This document shows positions 1-30,727 of a stretch of DNA of 30,727 nucleotides, one piece after another. The translations under genes and the position numbers were made by a program. The stretch's first letter is position 1, and the number at the start of each line of letters is the position of its first letter. The notes under the pieces were generated by a model. That model was not told where the DNA came from. It made no database searches and saw nothing but the letters and a program-made list of their open reading frames with translations. Source of the stretch: a virus; IMG/VR virus record IMGVR_UViG_3300045988_150938. One strand, given 5' to 3'.

Positions 1-665
1 CCCCGGAGCGTCAAATGCCGCCCATTTCCCCCTTCGGGTGAAATGTTCGCCATTGGCTCCGTGGTGCCGACACTTCGGCGCAAGCGCCTTGGTCGCTGTC
101 TGTTCCCTCTTGTTATTTTACTCCTCTATTTTTTATCTTTCCTTATCGGGAACCCTTTGTCCCTTCCGCAAGCGGAACGAACAATCAAGCCTGAAGGCTT
201 GGTCTGTCACGCCGCGGGCATAGCCCTCGGCTACAATCGAACCGCTTCGCTCTCGATTAATCACTATTTTATATAGATTTATCCTTGATATAACAGCTTT
301 TCTTGAATTTTCCGCGTCTGCCGCTTTTTCATTTGAATAGATTTTTATATGAATTAATTTTCTCGCAATTTAATTTCTTATAATTTTGTAAACGTGATAT
401 CTAACCGCTCCTATCTCTTAAACAGCTTCCTATATTTCTATTCACGCGTTCTATTGTTATTTTATTATAATAATTAAATAACATTATTTTACAAACACGA
501 ACTATTTATTGTTTTTTCTATGATTAATAGCCTTATTGTTCGTTTTTATTATATTTACATTCTTATGATATTCTTAATATTTACTATGTAACTTTCTTGA
601 TTACTTTCTTCTTCTCTTCACAAAAAAGCGTTGTATGATTTTTCATACAACGCTTAATTTTTTAC
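1..665. repeat. Left terminal inverted repeat. Positions 1-260 are identical to the reverse complement of 30468-30727 and GC-rich. Positions 261-665 are AT-rich and diverged (~85-90% identical) relative to 30063-30467.
   Basis: ORFs 38..223(+) and 30505..30690(-) translate identically. A manual reverse-complement alignment of both ends shows the first mismatches at position 261. Similarity continues to the hairpin at 627-656. Confidence 0.9.
627..662. terminator. Bidirectional stem-loop (aagcgttgtatg / catacaacgctt) flanked by A/T tracts. It terminates the minus-strand par operon and marks the inner edge of the left inverted repeat.
   Basis: 12-bp perfect stem, 6-7-nt loop, a T-run on the plus strand and an A-run upstream (a T-run on the minus strand). 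Confidence 0.7.
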
Positions 666-2158: not shown

Positions 2159-3061
2159 ATGAGTACAAATCAAAATGAGTTACAAGATAAATTAGCAGTA
2201 GAAGGTGTAAATGCAAATGGCTATGGTGTAATGCCTAAGCTTGTAATGCAAGATAAACGATTAACGATTGAAGCAAAATCAATCTATGCTTACATCGTTA
2301 GTTTTGCTGGCACAGGAAGTACAGCATTTCCTAGCTTACGGAAAATTCTAGAGGACTTACAGATTAGTGAAAAGCGTTTCTACAAACATCGTAAATTGTT
2401 AATTGACTGTAACTATATTTCTGTTACTCAAATTCGTAATGAGAAAAAAGAAATCATCAAAAATTTATACACGTTAATCTCTAATCCGAAAATTGAAGAA
2501 GAAGTACAAGATGAGGGTATCCGTCAAAATGACTGTGACCCTATCCCTCAATTTGACGGATACCCTATCAGTCAAAACGACCGACATAAAAGTAACAGTT
2601 TTAAAATTAACAATATAAAAGATGATGATGATATTAATAACGTATGCGAAGGCAAATTAACTCATGAAAATTTCTCTAACTATTCAACTCAAAAGGGCGT
2701 AGACTGTCCTTTAACAGTTCGAGAACGATTAACAACTGTACTCAAAGGAAAAGACTACTTAGCTCCGTTGGCGGTTTCTTTGCTTGCTGCTGGCGTGTCT
2801 GATGCAGACTGCTTAGAGATTATACAGTTTATTGTTACTTTGCCAGTCATTAATGAAGAAGTATCAGACCTGGTTAATGCACAAATACGTGCGAACGAAA
2901 CAGAAGCTAAAACAAACGGTCTTACTAGCTATAAGGCTTATTTCATTACAGGTTTAAAACAAAAGCTAGAAAATGCCGATATTTTTGTTCAAGAGACAAA
3001 TATTGTGAATCCTGATACAATTAAACCGTTACCAACTGTTACCATGCATAATTGGGTTTAA
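2159..3061 (+). CDS. repA: RepA_N-family plasmid replication initiator (N-terminal winged-helix domain).
   Basis: The N-terminal motif GYGVMPKLVMQDKRLTIEAKSIYAYIVSFAG...AFPSLRKILEDLQISEKRFYKHRKLLIDCNYI matches the RepA_N signature of Firmicutes theta plasmids. RBS ggaggggt is 6 nt upstream. The repeats at 1914-2062 lie upstream. Confidence 0.75.
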   Translation: MSTNQNELQDKLAVEGVNANGYGVMPKLVMQDKRLTIEAKSIYAYIVSFAGTGSTAFPSLRKILEDLQISEKRFYKHRKLLIDCNYISVTQIRNEKKEIIKNLYTLISNPKIEEEVQDEGIRQNDCDPIPQFDGYPISQNDRHKSNSFKINNIKDDDDINNVCEGKLTHENFSNYSTQKGVDCPLTVRERLTTVLKGKDYLAPLAVSLLAAGVSDADCLEIIQFIVTLPVINEEVSDLVNAQIRANETEAKTNGLTSYKAYFITGLKQKLENADIFVQETNIVNPDTIKPLPTVTMHNWV

Positions 3062-6377: not shown

Positions 6378-7104
6378 ACAAGAAATGGAAGAATCCAATT
6401 TTTTGGATGAATATAAAAAAGCTGGTTGGAAACTATGTTCAAGAATTCTTGGCATAAAAGAAGAGGAGACAACAATGGATAAACAAGAATTGATTGAAGA
6501 GTTAAAATGCTTAGAAGTTAAAACAGGTAGTCTCGATTATCTGAAAGGAGCTAACTATGCAACAGAAAGAGCAATTAGTTTAGCAAAACAACTAGACGAA
6601 CCGAAAAAAGTCATATTTTCGCATGAAGAGAAATTTGTGGCTGACTGGCTTAATGATTTAAGAGGTCAAATCAGTAATGTTAAGTTAAATTCTGGGGCTG
6701 TTTTCATGACGTTCATCGGCAGACAGTTAGAGCGGTACTATGATGAAGAATACTCGTTTTTAACTGAAAAAATAGAGAGCTGGCTTACAGTTCCAAAAAA
6801 TAAAGTTAAACTAATGAGCGCCATTGACAACGGCTACGAAGTCGAGAAAGAGCCAATCATTCATGAACTAAAGATCTTACCAGAATACTTTGAAGCAGTT
6901 GTTTCAGGTAATAAACGTTTTGAAATCCGTAAGAATGACCGTAACTATAAAAAAGGCGATATCTTACGCTTAAACGAATATCAAGACGGACAATATACAG
7001 GTGATGTCTATGTCGCAGAAATAACTTACATTACAAATTATGCACAACAAGATGGCTATATTGTCTTAGGGATTAAGGGGAAGCAGGTAACTAATGAAAA
7101 CTGA
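6370..7104 (+). CDS. Protein with a C-terminal ASCH/DUF3850-like (PUA-like) domain.
   Basis: The C-terminal LKILPEYFEAVVSGNKRFEIRKNDRNYKKGDILRLNEYQDG...VYVAEITYI matches the DUF3850/ASCH pattern. The start is chosen as an ATGA-type overlap with the upstream stop. The track start at 6343 is an alternative. Confidence 0.55.
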   Translation: MNKQEMEESNFLDEYKKAGWKLCSRILGIKEEETTMDKQELIEELKCLEVKTGSLDYLKGANYATERAISLAKQLDEPKKVIFSHEEKFVADWLNDLRGQISNVKLNSGAVFMTFIGRQLERYYDEEYSFLTEKIESWLTVPKNKVKLMSAIDNGYEVEKEPIIHELKILPEYFEAVVSGNKRFEIRKNDRNYKKGDILRLNEYQDGQYTGDVYVAEITYITNYAQQDGYIVLGIKGKQVTNEN

Positions 7105-7579
7105 TTTAACCAAACAAGCCGAGAAATGCTTGTGGTACTACACCAACAAAATGGGTGTGTTCGGCTGTTTTGAGGTGACAATTGGATGGTTCGGTAAGGA
7201 AAGAGTTGATTTCATGACTTATTCAACGGACAACACTATTAGATGTTATGAAATAAAAGTAACGTTGGCAGACTTAAAGAGCTCTGCAAAACAAACGTTT
7301 TTAGGTGATTATAACTATTTAGTAGTTACGAACAAATTATGGGAAAAGATTCAAGCCAATCCAGATTTGAGATGGAAATATCACAACCAAGGAATACTAG
7401 TTTTTTCTGAACTAAGACACAATTTAGGTATTACAAGTGTTAAAAAGGCGAAAAAACAAAATGTACCTCTAGGAACACGAGCAACGGTCTTAGAAAGTAT
7501 GGTGCGATCTTTAAATCGAGAAGTTGAGAAATTTTACAAGGTAAAGCCTTTTTGGGGATTAAGTGAGGAGGATGAATAA
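7094..7579 (+). CDS. MmcB-like PD-(D/E)XK-family putative nuclease.
   Basis: The motif series E...ERVDFM...CYEIKVTLADLKS...NYLVV fits the D / E-x-K core of the MmcB-like restriction-endonuclease fold. Confidence 0.45.
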   Translation: MKTDLTKQAEKCLWYYTNKMGVFGCFEVTIGWFGKERVDFMTYSTDNTIRCYEIKVTLADLKSSAKQTFLGDYNYLVVTNKLWEKIQANPDLRWKYHNQGILVFSELRHNLGITSVKKAKKQNVPLGTRATVLESMVRSLNREVEKFYKVKPFWGLSEEDE

Positions 7580-8159: not shown

Positions 8160-9059
8160 ATGAAAAATATACAACCTTACTTTTCTCATGATAGCAATGC
8201 ACGAAATTCTGATGAGTTAATTCCAGTACGCATGAAATTTGGTGCAGAAGGTTATGGCGTATATTTTATGTTGTTAGAACGATTAAGGGAAGAAGGAAAC
8301 TACACGAGTATCAAAGATTATAATACGATAGCCTTTGATCTTCGTGTAGATACTTCAATCATTAAATCAGTTATTGAAGACTTTGGGTTATTTGCCTTCA
8401 CCGAAGACGGTGAGTGTTTTTACTCCGAAGGCTTGAATAAACGAATGGCCTTTATGGAAGAAAAATCAAAAAAACGTTCTGAAGCAGGTAGAAAAGGCGC
8501 TGAAAAACGCTGGTCACAAAATCAAAATGAGTCAAATGCTATGAATGAGGAAAATAAAAATATAGCAAAAAAAAGGCAAACGGATAGCAATGCTATAGCA
8601 AAGCCATCTAAAAAAAATAGCAAACCTAAAAATGCTAATGCGATTGCTACCGAAAAAAATAGCAATAAAATAAAAGAAAATAAAAACAAAGAAAATAAAA
8701 TAAAAACAAAAGAAACTGCTGCTTATTCTAGTATAGATAAGACAAAAGATAGTAAAGCTGTTTCCTACTGGTTAACTCAAGTCCACCCAGCAGAAGCACC
8801 AACGATTATGGAATCGATTAATTTTTGGGTAGAAGATTTTGGAGGATATGACGAAATTGTTATATTGGCCATTGATGAAATGTTGAAAAATGGGGCTAAG
8901 AGCTATAACTATTTGGATACCATTCTAAAATCTTGGGAAACAAAAAAACTAGATACACCTGAAAAGGTGAAAAAACATTTATCTGGTTATTATAACAAGC
9001 GCAAGAATGATAATAACCAAAAAGGTGGGAGTATGAGTGACTGGGACGAATTACTTTGA
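8160..9059 (+). CDS. Phage replisome-organizer-type replication protein. It has an N-terminal DUF4373 (Lin1244/Lin1753-like) domain and a C-terminal DnaD-like (DnaB_2) domain, joined by a Lys/Asn-rich low-complexity linker.
   Basis: N-terminal YFSHDSNARNSDELI...GAEGYGVYFMLLERL. C-terminal YWLTQVHPAEAPTIMESINFWVEDFGGYDEIVILAIDEMLKNGAKSYNYLDTILKSWE. Confidence 0.75.
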   Translation: MKNIQPYFSHDSNARNSDELIPVRMKFGAEGYGVYFMLLERLREEGNYTSIKDYNTIAFDLRVDTSIIKSVIEDFGLFAFTEDGECFYSEGLNKRMAFMEEKSKKRSEAGRKGAEKRWSQNQNESNAMNEENKNIAKKRQTDSNAIAKPSKKNSKPKNANAIATEKNSNKIKENKNKENKIKTKETAAYSSIDKTKDSKAVSYWLTQVHPAEAPTIMESINFWVEDFGGYDEIVILAIDEMLKNGAKSYNYLDTILKSWETKKLDTPEKVKKHLSGYYNKRKNDNNQKGGSMSDWDELL

Positions 9060-9918
9060 GTATTTATCACAAGTGCATGAAATAGACGAACGTTGCGAGA
9101 TTCACGGTACTCGATTAAAAGTTTTTAAAGACTTTGAACCGTTTTGTCTAGCTTGTAGGGAAGAACGTATCAGGGAAGAAGAACAAAAGAGATTCGAACA
9201 AGCTTTTGACAGGAAGAAGCGACGGACTACACAAGAGGTTCTTTTAAAGGACAGCGTTTATACTGATTCAACACTGCAATCCGCTTGCTTTGAAAATTAC
9301 CATGCGAAACCAGGTACTGAAGCAGAACAGGCCAAAGAATTTGCTATAAATCAAGCAAGGGAGTATTACCGATTACGTTTAGAAAATAATAAATCAATTG
9401 AGCAAGAACAAGAAGAGCAACAGCCAGCATTTACTACGGTCTTTAGTGGACCAGTTGGCGTTGGAAAAAGTCATTTAGCAATGAGTATTTTAAAAAAATT
9501 GAATGAATATAACGATTTGACTTACTCGTGTTTATTTTTCAGTCTGGATCAATTATTGAGACGTATTCGAAATAGTTATGACGATGAAAGTGAGTATCTT
9601 ACTGAAGCAAGAGCGGTACAACTGGCGCTGGACGCTGATTATTTTGTACTTGATGATTTAGGAGCAGAGGTAGGAAGCATTGAAACGAATAAGCGAGCTA
9701 CTGACTTTATGATTCGGGTATTAAATGCAATCGTTGATGGTCGCCAAGGAAAAGGATTGATTATTACAACGAATCTAACAAACTTACAGATTCAAGCAAT
9801 TTATGGTCATCGTATTTACAGTCGCTTATTTGCAAACTCAAAAAATCATTTGTTTATTTTCAATGACGAACGACAAACACCAGACTATCGATTAATGGGC
9901 GGTGAAAAAAATGTGTAA
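9037..9918 (+). CDS. DnaI/DnaC-like helicase-loader AAA+ ATPase (IstB-like) with an N-terminal Cys/His zinc-binding region.
   Basis: Walker A FSGPVGVGKSHLA, Walker B YFVLDDLGAE, and N-terminal CEIHGT...CLACREE. Overlaps the upstream gene by 23 nt. Confidence 0.8.
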   Translation: MTGTNYFEYLSQVHEIDERCEIHGTRLKVFKDFEPFCLACREERIREEEQKRFEQAFDRKKRRTTQEVLLKDSVYTDSTLQSACFENYHAKPGTEAEQAKEFAINQAREYYRLRLENNKSIEQEQEEQQPAFTTVFSGPVGVGKSHLAMSILKKLNEYNDLTYSCLFFSLDQLLRRIRNSYDDESEYLTEARAVQLALDADYFVLDDLGAEVGSIETNKRATDFMIRVLNAIVDGRQGKGLIITTNLTNLQIQAIYGHRIYSRLFANSKNHLFIFNDERQTPDYRLMGGEKNV

Positions 9919-10102
9919 GTGGTGTAATGACAAACGAGTGGTACAAGAATTTGATTCACTTTTTGGCATTTTAAAGGTTAAACCTTGTCCTGTTTGTAAT
10001 CAAATAGTCAATAATTACGAAGCTCAAAAGGACGGTGACCTATTAAATGACAGACAATTTTTGGATGCTCCAGGGAAATCAATTGAAAAAATGGCGAGAT
10101 AG
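9902..10102 (+). CDS. Small zinc-ribbon protein (CxxC...CxxC).
   Basis: CKWCND...CPVCNQ. Confidence 0.5.
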   Translation: MKKMCKWCNDKRVVQEFDSLFGILKVKPCPVCNQIVNNYEAQKDGDLLNDRQFLDAPGKSIEKMAR

Positions 10103-10283
10103 AAGAAATCTAACACAAAAACAATTAGCCATGAAAATAGGTTGTCAACGTATGACGATTAGCAGGATAGAACAAGAAAAGCAAAAACCATCGTTAGAAT
10201 TAGCCTATTCTTTAGCAAATGCTTTAGATTTAAAGATAGAAGACCTCTTTTTATTTGAAAACAAGGAGCGTGAAAATGTGTGA
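10047..10283 (+). CDS. XRE-family HTH transcriptional regulator. The true start is possibly the internal Met at 10065.
   Basis: LTQKQLAMKIGCQRMTISRIEQEKQKPSLELAYSLANAL is a classic Cro/C1-type HTH. Confidence 0.65.
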   Translation: MTDNFWMLQGNQLKKWRDRRNLTQKQLAMKIGCQRMTISRIEQEKQKPSLELAYSLANALDLKIEDLFLFENKERENV

Positions 10284-10549
10284 TCACTGAAAATTATATT
10301 CATTCAGAAGGAAGAAGATTCGATGTACCGATTAAAAGAAAACGGACAAAAAGTAATGTAAAAGTTGGCGGCATTTATTGGTGTTCTGTAAAACCGTTTC
10401 AAGGTAAGATACGTGCGGAATGTTTAACGATTTACGATAATTCGGCATTAGTAAAAATTATCGTATGTGAAAAAGAAGCCGATGAAGCGTTACAAGTTCA
10501 ATTAAATCACCTAACTGTGGTTAGCTTAAAAAATATGAAAGGCGTGTAA
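10280..10549 (+). CDS. Hypothetical protein (89 aa).
   Basis: ORF in the operon. Its start overlaps the upstream stop (ATGTGTGA). Confidence 0.45.
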   Translation: MITENYIHSEGRRFDVPIKRKRTKSNVKVGGIYWCSVKPFQGKIRAECLTIYDNSALVKIIVCEKEADEALQVQLNHLTVVSLKNMKGV

Positions 10550-10552
10550 CAA

Positions 10553-10777
10553 ATGAGTAAGCAAAAGAGAAAGTCGTTAGCTTCTGATCACCCTTATAAG
10601 CGCATCAAAGAGGTTGCAAGACGTTATGGGTATAAATGTATTAGTAACGTAAAAAAATGGGACTGTGGCCGTTTTGAGGCGTTTGACTGGCATATTGGAA
10701 AAGTAATCTTAGTAGACTTAAAGGAAGCGAGTGTGAGTGAATGGAATCCAATGACAAAAGAGTGGGATCAGCAATAG
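10553..10777 (+). CDS. Hypothetical basic protein (74 aa).
   Basis: ORF with upstream RBS-like sequence. Confidence 0.45.
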   Translation: MSKQKRKSLASDHPYKRIKEVARRYGYKCISNVKKWDCGRFEAFDWHIGKVILVDLKEASVSEWNPMTKEWDQQ

Positions 10778-10989
10778 AATTAGCGCCAGAACAAGAGAAC
10801 ATGATTCGTGTATGTACACGCCAATACATGGATGATACAAATAATTATCCAAGAGCATGGTCTGATCGGAAAGACGCTGTTATTACCAAGTATAAACCTG
10901 TCTATCGTCTAATGGAAAAATACCCCGAGCCAGCAATGATTCAACGAATCGGCAATATAATTGTGGACGAATGGCGCAAGTATGAATAA
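10741..10989 (+). CDS. Hypothetical protein (82 aa).
   Basis: ORF; coding-like composition. Confidence 0.4.
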   Translation: MESNDKRVGSAIELAPEQENMIRVCTRQYMDDTNNYPRAWSDRKDAVITKYKPVYRLMEKYPEPAMIQRIGNIIVDEWRKYE

Positions 10990-10994
10990 CCTTT

Positions 10995-11030
10995 TTTCGA
11001 AAAAGAGTTATTCTGTTATAATTAACAGAA
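10995..11030 (+). promoter_or_regulatory. Putative promoter with an extended -10 (TGtTATAAT at 11014-11022) preceded by an A/T palindrome (cttttttcgaaaaag). Candidate middle/late promoter.
   Basis: Read directly: ctgttataatt. Confidence 0.4.
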
Positions 11031-11056
11031 AGAAGTAATGAACAGGAGAATAACCC

Positions 11057-11620
11057 ATGGCAAAATTCCAGAATGTATTTAAAGAAGCAAGTCGACGCAT
11101 GAAAAATTTCCAAGCTCGTGGCTTTATTCCATCAGGTTCTAAGTATGTTTTCCAAGATTTTGTCAATGAAGTATCGGCAGAGAATAGAGGAGAAAACTAT
11201 ACAGGTGCTTATACAAAGAATGCATACAATCAAGCCTATGGATCAAATATAGATTACGATTCTTCAGAAACTTTTCAAGAGATTCAACAAGGTCGAAATG
11301 AAAAACTCGTTCAAATTTACCAAAAAGAATTACTAGAAATTTATCATACGAATGATTTCTATGATATGGCATCTGATTACGGAAATGGCCGAGGAGGAGG
11401 TTTTTCACCTTCTGGAGTAATGAATATTGATACTCTTGAAGGATTAATTGATAATGCAAGCGAAGCTATGAATGTAGAGCCTTATCTATTTAGAAATAAA
11501 GTAGGGCGTAATAGAAGTGAAGAATCTAGTATGATGGACACATATCAAAATCAATTCATCGAAGAGTTAGGTCGTTTAATCGATGAAATGAGCGAACAAA
11601 AAATGAAATTTAAATACTAA
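11057..11620 (+). CDS. Hypothetical protein (187 aa), first gene after the putative late promoter.
   Basis: RBS acaggaga is 7 nt upstream. No recognisable motif. Confidence 0.6.
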   Translation: MAKFQNVFKEASRRMKNFQARGFIPSGSKYVFQDFVNEVSAENRGENYTGAYTKNAYNQAYGSNIDYDSSETFQEIQQGRNEKLVQIYQKELLEIYHTNDFYDMASDYGNGRGGGFSPSGVMNIDTLEGLIDNASEAMNVEPYLFRNKVGRNRSEESSMMDTYQNQFIEELGRLIDEMSEQKMKFKY

Positions 11621-11636
11621 AAGTTAGGTGGAACTT

Positions 11637-12638
11637 ATGAGCAATGAGGTAATGAAATCTGATGCATTTCAAAAAAAAGTAAAAACAATGTTAGGATTAA
11701 CTTATTTAACACGTGCCAAATTAGATGGATTTAACGGAAACCACTATATTTTGAAAGACATCTATGTAAATTCTACTAAAAATACTTCGCAAATCCATTA
11801 CCTTGGATGGGATGATCCACAAAAAATCCCTTTTTATCCTGATACAGATAGTTATCGTGGAGCAACTTCAGGAAGCAAGTATAACAAAGAGTTACTTGTT
11901 CCTAATGAACGAATGATTGAATATGATTTTGCTGAAGCATATACAAATATCATGAGAAACTATAAACTGCCATCGAATGTATACCTAGAAAATGTGCGTT
12001 TTGACAAAGAAAAATTATTAGAGCGGTTAGTTAGTTATGATAAACCTCAACCATACAAAGAATTATCAACGTTCGTTTTTGTAAAAGTTGCCATTGAAGC
12101 AATTGCAAAAGAAAGTACGTATACTGCTTTTGGTTCACATTTTCAACAATATCGAAAAAATCTTAGTCGTACATTAACAGTTACTGAAATTGAATTAAAG
12201 TTAATTATGGATTTTTATGATGTAAAAGCATTAGAAATACTAGAAACGTATACTTTCCGAACACGTAAAGGACTGTTAGAAGATTATTTTGAAAAAATTG
12301 ATCGACTAAAAGAGGATGAAGAAACAAAATTCTTTTATAAAATGTTACGGAACAAAATTTATGGAACGATTGGTAAACGTGAGTTGTCTACTCACGAAGC
12401 AAAAATATTTAAGTTTCCAATGTATAATCGTGCATTTTCTTCAATGGTAGCTGGCGTGTTTAGAGATAGAATCGCACGCTACGAACAAAAGTATGTAAAT
12501 AGTGAATATGGACTTGTATTAATTAAAACAGACGGCTTGTATTTTAAAAAAGAAGTTCCTGAATTTGAAGCATTAAACAAAAAAGGGATTGTAAAGAAAA
12601 AAGTACATGTTATTACAGACCATGATGTGAAAAATTAA
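11637..12638 (+). CDS. Hypothetical protein (333 aa) directly upstream of the encapsidation ATPase.
   Basis: RBS aggtgg is 6 nt before the ATG at 11637. It contains YPDTDSYRG and KIYGTIGK segments, but not in polymerase order. Confidence 0.6.
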   Translation: MSNEVMKSDAFQKKVKTMLGLTYLTRAKLDGFNGNHYILKDIYVNSTKNTSQIHYLGWDDPQKIPFYPDTDSYRGATSGSKYNKELLVPNERMIEYDFAEAYTNIMRNYKLPSNVYLENVRFDKEKLLERLVSYDKPQPYKELSTFVFVKVAIEAIAKESTYTAFGSHFQQYRKNLSRTLTVTEIELKLIMDFYDVKALEILETYTFRTRKGLLEDYFEKIDRLKEDEETKFFYKMLRNKIYGTIGKRELSTHEAKIFKFPMYNRAFSSMVAGVFRDRIARYEQKYVNSEYGLVLIKTDGLYFKKEVPEFEALNKKGIVKKKVHVITDHDVKN

Positions 12639-12697
12639 AAAAGAAATAAAAAGCGAAGCAGACAAGCTTTGCTTTTTTGATAGAAAGTGTGAAAAGA

Positions 12698-13870
12698 ATG
12701 GAGAAAAATAAATATGAAACGGAAGAAGGTTATTTAAATGTGCCAATCATATGGGAAGAAGTGGAACAATTCGCTTTTTTAGTTGGCGCACGAAACGTAG
12801 GTAAAACTTATGGATTCTTAAATTTTTCAATCAAACGAGGATTAGATACTATTTTAGAATGTTTTGATTTTTCTACACTACAGGAATTTAAAAAATTACC
12901 TACTTTGATGGAAGCAGAATTTCAATTTTTATTTTTACGCCGATATATTACACAAGCTAAGTCTGCCAGTAGAAATTTAGTATTGGCTGATTTTTATCAA
13001 CCATTTTTAGATAAGTTGCCTGAAGAAGTAAAAAAACAATATGAAGTATTTGTAGAATATCAGGGCTCTTCAGAAGAGCCTAGAGAAATACTATTAGTTT
13101 TTAGAAATAAGGAACTAAAAAAAGATAAAAAATGTATTAAATTAGGTTATCTTGGTGCGGTAAGTATGGCAGAAAAATTTAGAGGACCAGGTCTGCCAAA
13201 AGTAAAAGTAATATTATTGGATGAATTTCAATCGAAAAAAAATTGGGATTATTTACCAAATGAACCTGTAGAGCTAGAAGATATTTACGAATCCGTTGGA
13301 CGTTTAAGATGTGGAACTGGAGATATTAAAGTGATTGCATTAGGGAATTCAGGGACAATTTTAAATCCTTATTTTGATTATTATGGATATGACGAATTCA
13401 CGGAGGTTAAAACAGTAAAGCGTGAAGGAGAAGTTCTTTTTTATCATTTACCCAATAAAGCAAAAAGAAGCGAGCAATCTAAAAATTTATTTAAAGGATC
13501 AGCATATGGTAAATATTCATTAGATAATGATTTTGCGGACAATCAGTTATTTAATGTCATTCGTTTAAAAGAAGCAAAAGCACCTCGAAAATGTCTATAT
13601 AATATTTTCTTTGGGGAAACATATATCGGTGTTTGGAGAACAGGAGACTATAAAATTCTAATTAGCCGTGTAAGTGATCCAGATAAATTAGATATTGTTG
13701 ATCGGACACCTATAGAAGAACAAGTGCTAGATCAACAAGTATACAGGGTACTTTCAGATAAATTACAAAACAAACAACTTTATTTTGATTCGCCAGAATT
13801 GAGGTTAATTGCTGAAAAACACTTGCGCAAATATATTTATAATTCTGCGAGTGAATGGGAAACATTTTAA
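12698..13870 (+). CDS. phi29 gp16-like DNA encapsidation ATPase.
   Basis: FLVGARNVGKTYGF is alignable to phi29 FVIGARGIGKSYAM. KVILLDEFQSKKNWDYLPNE...RLRCGTGDIKVIALGNSGTILNPYF is alignable to phi29 IVFDEFIREKDNSNYIPNE...RVRCICLSNAVSVVNPYF. SLDNDFADNQLF matches SLDNQFIGDSQVF. The start is uncertain between TTG 12677 and ATG 12698. Confidence 0.85.
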   Translation: MEKNKYETEEGYLNVPIIWEEVEQFAFLVGARNVGKTYGFLNFSIKRGLDTILECFDFSTLQEFKKLPTLMEAEFQFLFLRRYITQAKSASRNLVLADFYQPFLDKLPEEVKKQYEVFVEYQGSSEEPREILLVFRNKELKKDKKCIKLGYLGAVSMAEKFRGPGLPKVKVILLDEFQSKKNWDYLPNEPVELEDIYESVGRLRCGTGDIKVIALGNSGTILNPYFDYYGYDEFTEVKTVKREGEVLFYHLPNKAKRSEQSKNLFKGSAYGKYSLDNDFADNQLFNVIRLKEAKAPRKCLYNIFFGETYIGVWRTGDYKILISRVSDPDKLDIVDRTPIEEQVLDQQVYRVLSDKLQNKQLYFDSPELRLIAEKHLRKYIYNSASEWETF

Positions 13871-29611: not shown

Positions 29612-30073
29612 ATGTCATTACAAACATCTTTGAAAGTAGCTTATCCTGCTATTTTTCATCCAGAAGAGGGTGGAGGATACTTTATTGAATTTCCAGATGT
29701 TCAAGGAGCGTATACAGGTATAAATGAAAATGATATAGCCTATGGTTTATTGATGGCTGAAGAAGTTTTAGGTATGGTGTTAGCTGATTATATTGAAAAT
29801 AATGAGACGTTGCCTAAAGCAAGTGAATTAAATAGTATAAGTCATAAACCTGATGAATTTGTAACTATGGTTTTAGTTGATATAGAAGAATATTTTAAAG
29901 ACATGAAACCAGTAAAAAAGACGCTAACGATCCCAAGTTGGGCCAATAACTGGGGAAATAGAGTAGGAATAAATTTTTCGCAACTGTTAACGGAATCGAT
30001 CGCACAGACAGCAATAAATTACACACAAGAGACATTAAAGGAAACAAAAGAAAAATACGAAGTAAAAAATTAA
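29612..30073 (+). CDS. hicB: HicB-family antitoxin.
   Basis: YPAIFHPEEGGGYFIEFPDVQGAYTGINENDIAYGLLMAEEVL matches the HicB N-terminal RNase-H-like fold signature. RBS aagggagggaa. Confidence 0.8.
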   Translation: MSLQTSLKVAYPAIFHPEEGGGYFIEFPDVQGAYTGINENDIAYGLLMAEEVLGMVLADYIENNETLPKASELNSISHKPDEFVTMVLVDIEEYFKDMKPVKKTLTIPSWANNWGNRVGINFSQLLTESIAQTAINYTQETLKETKEKYEVKN

Positions 30074-30098
30074 GCGTTGTATGAAAAATCATACAACG
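30062..30098. terminator. Bidirectional stem-loop (aacgttgtatg / catacaacgtt followed by tttttt). It is the mirror of the hairpin at 627-662 and the inner edge of the right inverted repeat.
   Basis: Read directly. Partner of the left-arm hairpin. Confidence 0.75.
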
Positions 30099-30727
30099 TT
30101 TTTTTGTGAAGAGAAGAAGAAAGTAACCAAGAAAGTTACATAGCAAATATTAAGAATATCATAAGAATACGAATATGACAAAAACGAACAATACAGCTAT
30201 TAATAATAGAAATAACAATAAATAGTTCGTGTTTTGTAAATAGATGTTATTTAATTATTAACATAAAATAACACTATTATTCAAAAGTAGAAATATAGGA
30301 AACGATTTAAAAGATGCGAACGGTTAGATACTACGTTAACAAAATTATAAGAAATAAAATTGTCAGAAAATTCAGAAATATAAAAATCTATTTAAATGAA
30401 AAAGCGGCAGACGCGGAAAATTAAATAAAAGCTGTTATATCAAGTATAAATCTGTATAAAATAGTAGTTAATCGAGAGCGAAGCGGTTCGATTGTAGCCG
30501 AGGGCTATGCCCGCGGCGTGACAGACCAAGCCTTCAGGCTTGATTGTTCGTTCCGCTTGCGGAAGGGACAAAGGGTTCCCGATAAGGAAAGATAAAAAAT
30601 AGAGGAGTAAAATAACAAGAGGGAACAGACAGCGACCAAGGCGCTTGCGCCGAAGTGTCGGCACCACGGAGCCAATGGCGAACATTTCACCCGAAGGGGG
30701 AAATGGGCGGCATTTGACGCTCCGGGG
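30063..30727. repeat. Right terminal inverted repeat. Positions 30468-30727 are identical to the reverse complement of 1-260. Positions 30063-30467 are the diverged AT-rich part.
   Basis: As for the left repeat. Confidence 0.9.

Follow-up and report, generated by a model that had tools for sequence, protein, structure and literature searches.

Enterococcus phage EF62phi (CP002495 / NC_017732, 30,505 bp) has been described as a linear, extrachromosomal, pseudotemperate phage (PMC6863802; PMC10746210; PMC6521178), was placed among the phi29-related phage-plasmids in a 2024 survey (PMC11476376), and belongs to a type of element found in 26% of urinary isolates in one survey (PMC10746210). We found no accessible paper in which its ends are analysed. 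The subject of the present work is the pair of terminal inverted repeats of IMG/VR virus record IMGVR_UViG_3300045988_150938, a stretch of 30,727 nucleotides (nt) that was analysed over its full length and is referred to as the window. Judged by identity and gene order, the window is a close relative of EF62phi: in a megablast comparison of its first 25 kb, 66-92% is covered by EF62phi-type records at 98-99% identity, the termini are 94-99% identical, and the gene order is shared. Its near-identical genome and its defined linear ends place it among the EF62phi-type linear phage-plasmids, and many E. faecalis entries, deposited either under the name 'phage EF62phi' or as plasmids, are likewise close relatives. 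EF62phi and the E. faecalis 'plasmids' of this type are the same kind of element, with the same gene order and termini; EF62phi differs from the window in that the inner alleles of the repeats are exchanged between the ends and that its outer repeats show eight differences, compared with none in the window. We put at roughly 0.6 the probability that the repeats are protein-capped telomeres, at the ends of a linear phage-plasmid of the EF62phi type from Enterococcus faecalis, with the outer zone of the repeats acting as the cis site for protein-primed synthesis by a minimal family-B DNA polymerase (mini-PolB).

The phi29-like phages (Salasmaviridae, Rountreeviridae) resemble the window in their linear double-stranded DNA with inverted repeats, in the types of their capsid, connector, collar, tail knob and gp16 proteins, in the polymerase fold, and in a 5' homopolymer run. 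However, the phi29 repeats measure 6 bp (PMC11476376), compared with ~695 bp here, including a 260-bp hairpin array. The phi29 polymerase has ~575 amino acids (aa), compared with 336 aa and no exonuclease domain here, and the window has no recognizable terminal protein or packaging RNA (pRNA), while plasmid initiator, partition and toxin-antitoxin genes are added. Adenovirus, PRD1 and the tectiviruses (GIL01/pBClin15) are invertrons, with linear DNA, inverted terminal repeats of ~100 bp and protein-primed replication by a family-B polymerase (PolB). To our knowledge, these have full-length, proofreading PolB enzymes, no theta-type initiator and no conserved single-strand hairpin array. GIL01 is likewise a linear plasmid-prophage of a Firmicute (PMC11511902). 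The replicons with hairpin telomeres (N15, PY54, Borrelia) share the linear plasmid-prophage lifestyle with partition functions, but the window differs from them in its open ends, fixed terminal nucleotide and long imperfect repeats, and a protelomerase was not found in it.

The telomeres of Streptomyces contain tightly packed palindromes with GCA loops closed by sheared G:A pairs, and Palindrome I folds back on Palindrome IV; a ~300-nt 3' overhang, a 167-bp minimum and a 185-aa terminal protein have been reported (PMC4513846). Similarly, the window has dense palindromes on the 3'-ending strand, packed into the first 170-300 nt, a terminal palindrome predicted to fold onto an internal one, 3'-strand loops closed by G...A (GCA there; GAA, GTA and GGA here, the GNA type being read from sequence only), an internal initiator, and a ~185-aa protein beside a dedicated polymerase gene. 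It differs in having PolB instead of Tap, a low-GC Firmicute host, a phage replicon and CTTG as a second loop type, and its overhang and cap are ones that we infer. No homologue of Tpg/Tap (or Tpc/Tac) was found by Pfam or NCBIfam for the 187-aa protein concerned, and the neighbouring enzyme is PolB; the resemblance to Streptomyces is, therefore, one of mechanism and not of membership by descent. The element itself, its linearity, and inverted terminal repeats on protein-primed replicons are already known. A hairpin-array telomere in a phage-plasmid of the phi29 lineage, its covariation and strand polarity, the exchange of inner alleles and the accompanying minimal PolB appear to be undescribed.

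Anatomy of the terminal repeats

Positions 1-260 are the reverse complement of 30468-30727 without a single mismatch, as the sequence-only reading of this DNA had claimed, and a perfect inverted repeat of 260 nt within 30.7 kb is not a chance occurrence. The first differences between left and right are at 261-262 (TC vs CT), where that reading had also placed them. Beyond this point, the inner zones (261-665) are identical in 87.7% of their alignment (357/407 columns, three gap positions). The repeat had been given a length of 665 bp; it is present, but similarity extends further, to ~695-700, with 86.9% identity over 261-700 and a background level of 53% over 701-900. Both ends thus carry an inverted terminal repeat of the invertron kind, perfect for 260 nt and then ~87% identical for ~435 nt, and both begin with reiterated terminal nucleotides (5'-CCCC).

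The outer zone is GC-rich, as claimed (55.0%), although in a genome of 32.8% GC and not ~31%. Its composition is uneven: 64% GC over 1-100, 30% in the spacer at 101-147 and 57.5% over 148-260, followed by 24.4% over 261-665. A terminator-like hairpin, with a 13-bp stem, A/T runs on either side and a terminator score on both strands, closes the repeat at each inner border, at the coordinates below instead of at 627-662 and 30062-30098 as first reported. On each side it lies directly downstream of the last outward-reading gene, the DUF5388/par operon on the left and hicB on the right. The parts of the repeats, none of which is assigned to a strand, are as follows.

1-260: left outer zone, a GC-rich, conserved putative telomere with two hairpin clusters and an AT-rich spacer between them
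261-625: left inner zone (allele A), an AT-rich (24% GC), non-coding, unstructured, polymorphic spacer
626-655: left bidirectional terminator-like hairpin, just 3' of the stop codon (677) of the leftward DUF5388/par operon
656-695: innermost tail of the repeat beyond the terminator, with fading similarity; mirror at ~30033-30071
30072-30101: terminator-like hairpin at the right inner border, overlapping the hicB stop codon (30071-30073)
30103-30467: right inner zone (allele B), nearest to the left end of EF62phi
30468-30727: right outer zone, mirror of 1-260

The termini in other assemblies

At least eight assemblies open with identical bases, CCCCGGAGCG. Those that share the terminal nucleotide are the window and EF62phi (both at both ends), three IMG/VR contigs (L002-L004), one contig of an NCBI genome (L107) and three complete metagenome contigs (OBUO01000149, OAVM01000225 and Ga0129309_1000577). 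This common start in independent assemblies means that the ends are real and not an artefact of the present assembly. An assembly artefact, or a circle with a single copy of the repeat, had been named as the finding that would overturn the sequence-only reading; the shared terminal nucleotide speaks against both, as do the inner copies, which differ between left and right. The repeats are the physical ends of a linear replicon, as that reading supposed, and a role as telomeres or in end replication is the likeliest one for them.

Streptomyces Palindrome I begins with CCCGCGGAGCGGG (bioRxiv 10.1101/2025.10.14.682034), which agrees with CCCCGGAGCG (1-13) of the window at 10 of 11 aligned bases, with one gap. 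This likeness of terminal bases may be coincidence or convergence.

In other public records, an equal length (35, 60, 64, 148, 200 or 248 nt) is missing from each end, or else the two ends are fused head-to-head. The breaks coincide with the apexes of hairpins or, in one haplotype, with a perfect 10-bp palindrome (GTGTCGACAC), and such records are best explained as assembly fold-back artefacts. Nanopore-first assemblies have been reported to truncate the protein-capped telomeres of Streptomyces (bioRxiv 10.1101/2025.10.14.682034). For three assemblies cut at exactly 64/65, the base of the terminal hairpin was considered as the site of a biological turn-around; this was rejected, since the palindrome GTGTCGACAC of that haplotype accounts for the cut. 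Records of the element deposited as a 'complete circular plasmid' (L087 = CP110034.1; L088-L095) are truncated at hairpin apexes. In one of them, pBE54_1 (L087, CP110034.1, 29948-34630), 4.7 kb of unrelated GC-rich DNA with fragments of arginine deiminase and permease genes follows the left telomere; this extra DNA is probably the product of a chimeric assembly.

More distant relatives (L numbers below) were found through the PolB-like protein and the 187-aa protein; they show 45-80% protein identity and have homologous or analogous ends. An IMG/VR search for such relatives returned near-identical copies only, and an 18-mer scan of genome contigs gave chance matches only, in high-GC genomes.

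A hairpin array on the 3'-ending strand

Folded as single-stranded DNA and compared with dinucleotide shuffles, the outer 262 nt have z = -6.6 on the 3'-ending strand (the minus strand at the left end) and -4.4 on the other, while the inner zone has z = -1.1. The predicted structure consists of a terminal fold-back and a series of compact hairpins in two clusters.

1-4, plus strand: CCCC run at the 5' terminus, so that the 3' end of the template strand is GGGG; same first bases in at least eight assemblies
2-64, minus strand: terminal fold-back hairpin, formed by pairing of the final nucleotides of the 3'-ending strand with 56-64; apex C-GAA-G; mirror at 30664-30726
68-95, minus strand: first GCAAGC-apex hairpin, which has GGCGCAAGCGCC (77-88) as its core palindrome, reading G-CTTG-C on the 3'-ending strand; mirror at 30633-30660
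96-147, no strand: AT-rich spacer within the outer zone, with most of its few polymorphisms; poorly conserved in L107-type relatives
157-184, minus strand: hairpin A, second GCAAGC apex (TTCC-GCAAGC-GGAA); mirror at 30544-30571
186-201, minus strand: hairpin B, CAAGCC-TGAA-GGCTTG; mirror at 30527-30542
211-231, minus strand: hairpin C, GCCGcGGGC-ATA-GCCCtCGGC, a predicted fold; mirror at 30497-30517
235-258, minus strand: hairpin D, AATCGA...TCGATT, at the inner edge of the outer zone; apex GC-GAA-GC on the 3'-ending strand; mirror at 30470-30493

The 24 copies of the end available from EF62phi-type records contain few polymorphisms, which cluster in the spacer. Divergence is greater in L107 and Ga0129309, where nt 1-100 and the last hairpin are nearly unchanged and the stems of hairpins A and B are replaced by other complementary sequence. 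We aligned the 3'-ending strand of nine sequences over 52 base pairs, of which 97% of cells are paired and six of the 52 pairs show compensatory changes on both sides. The covariation score of 0.116 compares with 0.058 in shuffles (0/500 as high) and with 0.02-0.06 when the register is slid. All 25 pairs of the terminal fold-back are kept in the nine sequences, with one compensatory change (C:G to A:T) and two changes that give G.T only; the two ends of Ga0129309 itself differ by a C:G to A:T exchange in this stem. Hairpin A has four pairs with compensatory double changes relative to the L107 type, which has a 12-bp AT stem under the same apex, and hairpin B has one C:G to G:C exchange in that type (and a weak terminator-like score as well). 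At the position of hairpin C, the alignment shows a different hairpin in L107-type relatives, GTTT-GA-GCC-TT-GGC-GA-AAAC. Linked changes C67T and T75G, a candidate for a further compensatory pair, were rejected on inspection of the alignment.

The loops are of few kinds. On the 3'-ending strand they read C-GAA-G, G-CTTG-C (twice) and GC-GAA-GC. Hairpin D is conserved in L107, L118, L119 and Ga0129309 with triloops GAA, GTA and GGA, in which the middle base alone varies, and as aligned this variation follows the GNA-triloop rule. The oligonucleotide d(GCGNAGC) is the classic hyperstable DNA mini-hairpin, with sheared G:A closure. The GCAAGC apex is found with different complementary stems at the termini of L099, L102, L103, L106 and L107, and analogous terminal fold-backs are predicted in L103 and L099. 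Overall, hairpins with this apex (arms of at least 3 bp) are present at the termini of six diverged lineages, with a single other instance in ~190 kb; their stems are GGC/GCC, GCG/CGC, CACG/CGTG, TTCGA/TCGAA, AGC/GCT and a 12-bp AT stem, and AA is always on the 5'-ending strand. Likewise, all eight wobble cells in the alignment (three sites) form a pair on the 3'-ending strand only. Apexes of one polarity, together with wobbles on one strand, argue for a strand-specific single-strand structure and not for duplex palindromes bound by protein.

Two open reading frames (ORFs) in the outer zones (43-276 and 30440-30685; EF62_phi0001 and 0048 in EF62phi) were considered as genes and rejected. The window and the L107 type differ there by frame-breaking indels of 1, 1, 1, 2 and 8 nt, and these ORFs are almost certainly not genes.

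The motif CGAACWAT has six matches in the window, all inside the terminal repeats (178-185, 498-505, 535-542 and their mirrors). ACGAAC-type motifs cluster in the subterminal DNA of L099, L106 and L119, and a looser version is common elsewhere in relatives. As a lead only, CGAACWAT may be a protein-binding site.

The polymerase gene pair and replication genes

The genes that bear on replication and packaging of the ends are listed here.

2159-3061, plus strand: DnaD-like replication initiator or helicase loader, beside the par locus
8160-9059: DnaB_2 gene, replication loader
9037-9918: DnaC/IstB-like gene, replication loader
11057-11620, plus strand: 187-aa all-helical protein directly upstream of the PolB-like gene; candidate terminal protein, from synteny only
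11628-12638, plus strand: mini-PolB, 336 aa, a phi29-type family-B polymerase domain in which the exonuclease domain is absent; candidate end-replication polymerase
12677-13870, plus strand: DNA packaging ATPase of the phi29 gp16 type (PF05894, E = 3.8e-18; phrog_2150)

ORF 11628-12638, annotated as 'hypothetical' in all public records, has no Pfam match of its own. PF03175 matches five of 29 members of the PolB-like family, however, and a profile built from these 29 homologues finds phi29 DNA polymerase in the PDB (E = 1.2e-5). The AlphaFold model (pLDDT 91.7) gives phi29 DNA polymerase as Foldseek PDB matches 1-9 (E ~1e-11, TM 0.54-0.60), compared with ~1e-4 for other family-B polymerases. 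The protein aligns with approximately residues 150-495 of the phi29 enzyme and ends ~35 residues after motif C; the aspartates of motifs A and C (D97 and D299) and the lysine of motif B (K235) do not vary. By its modelled fold, this ORF is a phi29-type polymerase domain and a candidate protein-priming polymerase. In an exhaustive search, the short form (341-391 aa) proved rare, with ~4 clusters at 50% identity among 1.8 billion representative proteins, and is separated by a size gap from the ordinary polymerases of 530-660 aa that come next.

The 187-aa gene and the PolB-like gene are syntenic in L099, L102, L103 and L105-L120. The pair is constant across relatives in which the plasmid initiator varies (DnaD, Rep3, RepL), and in several relatives of 25-27 kb (L107, L118, L119, L120), which have Rep3 or RepL, a gene for single-stranded DNA-binding protein (SSB) comes right after the PolB-like gene. 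As compared across these genomes, the plasmid module is interchangeable and the polymerase pair constant. Synteny alone makes the 187-aa product a candidate terminal protein. The possibility that it is a split-off exonuclease domain was rejected, as its model is entirely alpha-helical.

A pair of this kind (184 aa and PolB-like) is also present at 9434-11104 of a 30-kb contig (L096; ena:ERZ27247387 k141_370358), of which the 21 kb retrieved is free of phage genes. Also encoded on this contig are a sortase, a tyrosine integrase, YfhO and a very large surface protein.

The remaining content of the window combines plasmid genes (ParA, the DUF5388 adaptor, a CI-like repressor and HicAB) with virion genes (phi29-type major capsid protein, connector, lower collar, tail knob and the gp16 packaging ATPase). 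The phi29 gp16 motor packages DNA capped with terminal protein. The DnaD-like, DnaB_2 and DnaC/IstB-like genes make internal replication by the host replisome probable.

Selection and exchange in the two zones

The sequence-only reading ascribed the perfect outer identity to homogenisation that proceeds inward from the ends, which is partly borne out. In each of five elements for which both ends could be compared, the perfect tract between left and right starts at the terminus.

Ga0129309: 15 nt
EF62phi: 54 nt
this window: 260 nt
OAVM: 583 nt
OBUO: 233 nt, then only two mismatches up to ~780 nt

Terminus-anchored tracts of this kind are expected because a crossover between the repeats of a linear molecule replaces all the distal DNA. 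The sharp edge at 260 is not simply the stopping point of this process, however. Perfect identity of the outer zone is not a rule of the family either, as the left and right ends of EF62phi differ at 8 of 260 outer positions. What is shared by EF62phi-type copies is the near invariance of positions 133-260, with the last conserved hairpin at 235-258. An outer zone that is almost invariant between elements and shows compensatory changes means that purifying selection on structure explains most of the identity. The two-zone appearance is mainly the result of selection on the telomere beside a freely drifting spacer.

The inner zone, which had been thought merely to have drifted, has a more complex history. 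The left inner zone of the window is nearest to the right one of EF62phi (404/440), and the right one to the left of EF62phi (432/440), whereas the unique DNA just inside the repeats keeps its side in the two elements. Inner alleles swapped end-for-end between unique flanks that stay in place imply a crossover between the inverted repeats, which flips the unique region. The switch between the arrangements of the window and EF62phi can be placed in the terminator region, somewhere from ~601 to 680. There are at least two old inner alleles, ~13% apart; both end arrangements recur among records, as do mosaics, and these are allelic lineages shuffled by recombination and exchanged between ends. 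The left end of the window also combines inner allele A with the outer haplotype of the other end of EF62phi, which implies an ancestral terminal exchange with its inner endpoint within 132-261.

Centromere repeats, a conserved promoter and a fold signal were all looked for in the inner zone and none was found. In Ga0129309 (26.7 kb), the ends repeat only ~250 nt, i.e. the outer zone alone, and the inner zone is, therefore, unnecessary for a working end. A comparison of related elements had been proposed to see whether only the outer 260 bp are conserved: the outer zone is indeed conserved between elements and the inner zone polymorphic, but the spacer at 96-147 is poorly conserved in L107-type relatives.

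Proposed mechanism and alternatives

If the repeats are protein-capped telomeres, the outer 260 bp of the 3'-ending strand would fold into the terminal fold-back and a further five or six compact hairpins, whose loops are of the GNA and CTTG types. The folded end would be the start site for the candidate terminal protein (11057-11620) and mini-PolB (11628-12638), acting opposite the terminal GGGG, and a protein cap would be left on each 5' CCCC end. Terminal reiterations serve sliding-back in the protein-primed initiation of phi29 and PRD1, and by analogy the terminal CCCC may be usable in the same way. Bulk replication in the plasmid state would probably be internal and host-driven (through DnaD, DnaB_2 and DnaC-like proteins in the window and through Rep3 or RepL in relatives). 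The main task of the telomere module would be to patch 3' overhangs, as in Streptomyces, and it would also supply capped DNA for the gp16 packaging motor. The AT-rich inner 400 bp would be a dispensable, polymorphic spacer, and the terminator that closes it would keep transcription from reading through into the telomere. The identity pattern would result from strong purifying selection acting on the outer zone together with occasional recombination between ends, and intramolecular recombination between the ends would flip the unique region relative to the inner alleles.

Within this capped-telomere scheme, we tentatively favour Streptomyces-like patching of a folded 3' overhang after internal replication, at odds well short of even, because the polymerase lacks proofreading, a theta-type initiator is present in every relative, and the hairpin array matches the telomeres of Streptomyces. 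Also doubtful in our view, at much the same odds, is the full scenario in which a phage of the phi29 lineage became a linear plasmid by joining a host-type theta replicon, a Streptomyces-like patched telomere and a rare, minimal, exonuclease-less PolB, with the 260-bp zone as a folded overhang template read via its GNA and CTTG loops.

Several points weigh against capped telomeres served by mini-PolB. The covariation comes from two or three independent lineages with few events, which makes it good but not overwhelming. Hairpins that tolerate G.T/G.U on one strand fit an outward RNA equally well as single-stranded DNA. The thumb of mini-PolB is, from the alignment, probably missing as well as the exonuclease domain. 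The 187-aa protein shows no similarity to any terminal protein, with no fold match of any kind in the PDB or BFVD and no Pfam or NCBIfam match. The occurrence of a polymerase pair without phage genes in contig L096 shows that the module is not confined to phi29-like virions and that its role is perhaps not tied to phage ends. Finally, the anatomy of the repeats, their conservation and covariation, the polymerase fold and the swap of alleles are observed here; the protein cap and the 3' overhang, like the polymerase of bulk replication, are features that we infer.

The alternative that survives best, which we nevertheless consider unlikely, is replication in the phi29 style only. Both ends would then be duplex origins for full-length, protein-primed strand displacement by mini-PolB, displaced single strands would form panhandles through the long repeats, panhandle repair would homogenise the ends, the hairpins would be accessory, and there would be no Streptomyces-like end patching. 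The virion and packaging genes are phi29-like, the polymerase is of the phi29 type and followed by SSB in several relatives, and the identity tracts are anchored at the terminus, all as this would predict. However, a polymerase without a proofreading domain, whose C-terminus comes soon after motif C, is poorly equipped for processive copying of 30 kb, and every family member has a theta-type initiator and partition genes. Moreover, phi29 needs just a 6-bp repeat (PMC11476376), which leaves a conserved, strand-specific hairpin array of 260 bp unexplained.

It is quite improbable that the outer zone encodes a structured RNA transcribed outward, e.g. an analogue of the phi29 pRNA, present twice because it lies in the repeat. 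In phi29, the pRNA gene lies close to the left end and its product acts together with gp16 and the connector (PMC11476376); the element has both proteins. The outward-reading strand is the one that folds better and to which the wobble pairs are confined. G-CUUG-C and GAAA are stable loops in RNA too, but the GC-GNA-GC apex is a mini-hairpin motif of the DNA type. Pairing that reaches the very last nucleotide is expected of a DNA end rather than of a gene, and no conserved outward promoter was found beside the outer zone, the best promoter-like site (577..548) not being kept in the other inner allele. Rfam was searched with the whole window at the gathering threshold and with 1-800 at a limit of E = 10; there were two chance-level matches only, and none to the phi29 pRNA (RF00044).

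The chance is smaller still that the ends are covalently closed or self-priming hairpins of the poxvirus, parvovirus or N15 kind, with the imperfect terminal palindrome of 64 nt as the turn-around. The terminal 64 nt do fold back with the 3' end paired, and several public assemblies turn around inside the repeat. These turn-arounds, however, are at varying hairpin apexes or at the palindrome GTGTCGACAC and are best read as assembly fold-backs, whereas the independent ends stop at one nucleotide, with the imperfect palindrome in one orientation and no 'flop' form seen. Furthermore, ORF scans of the window and the RefSeq/GenBank annotation of relatives gave no protelomerase, tyrosine recombinase, HUH nickase or resolvase, and no unassigned ORF is large enough for a protelomerase. 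An assembly artefact, or a circle with a single copy of the repeat, is suggested by several records labelled circular or joined head-to-head but can practically be dismissed, since the terminal nucleotide is common to at least eight assemblies, made in different projects with different technologies, the left and right copies are not identical in the inner zone (nor, in EF62phi, in the outer zone), which makes them two loci and not one collapsed copy, and the 'circular' records are short by 35-249 nt symmetrically or contain foreign DNA.

EF62phi-type elements are common in E. faecalis, and their assemblies are routinely faulty, either closed into circular plasmids or cut short at the ends; the true telomere sequence and its hairpin anatomy would allow correct assembly and typing. 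The family joins a phi29-type virion with host-type replication. Should protein-primed patching on a folded overhang be confirmed, the element would provide a compact second model of bacterial end replication, genetically tractable and in a low-GC host, and would be the first such telomere system outside the actinomycetes, an independent invention of end patching. Mini-PolB could be a minimal protein-priming polymerase of biotechnological interest.

Other features of the window

Some genes of the early region differ between the window and EF62phi. One ORF of 161 aa (7094-7579), at a position where EF62phi has none, gives a weak match to sce7726 (NCBIfam, E = 1.3e-5, below the family cut-off), and by eye contains a D...E-x-K pattern typical of PD-(D/E)xK nucleases. 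A tRNA scan of the window found nothing.

Two arrays of 8-bp repeats (GTGTACAG / GTAGACAG) lie upstream of parA, at 1906-1975 and 2001-2078, and an inverted copy closes each. These arrays are likely to be the partition (centromere) site. A centromere in the inner zone of the repeats was also considered and rejected, as the arrays at 1906-2078 sit outside the terminal repeats.

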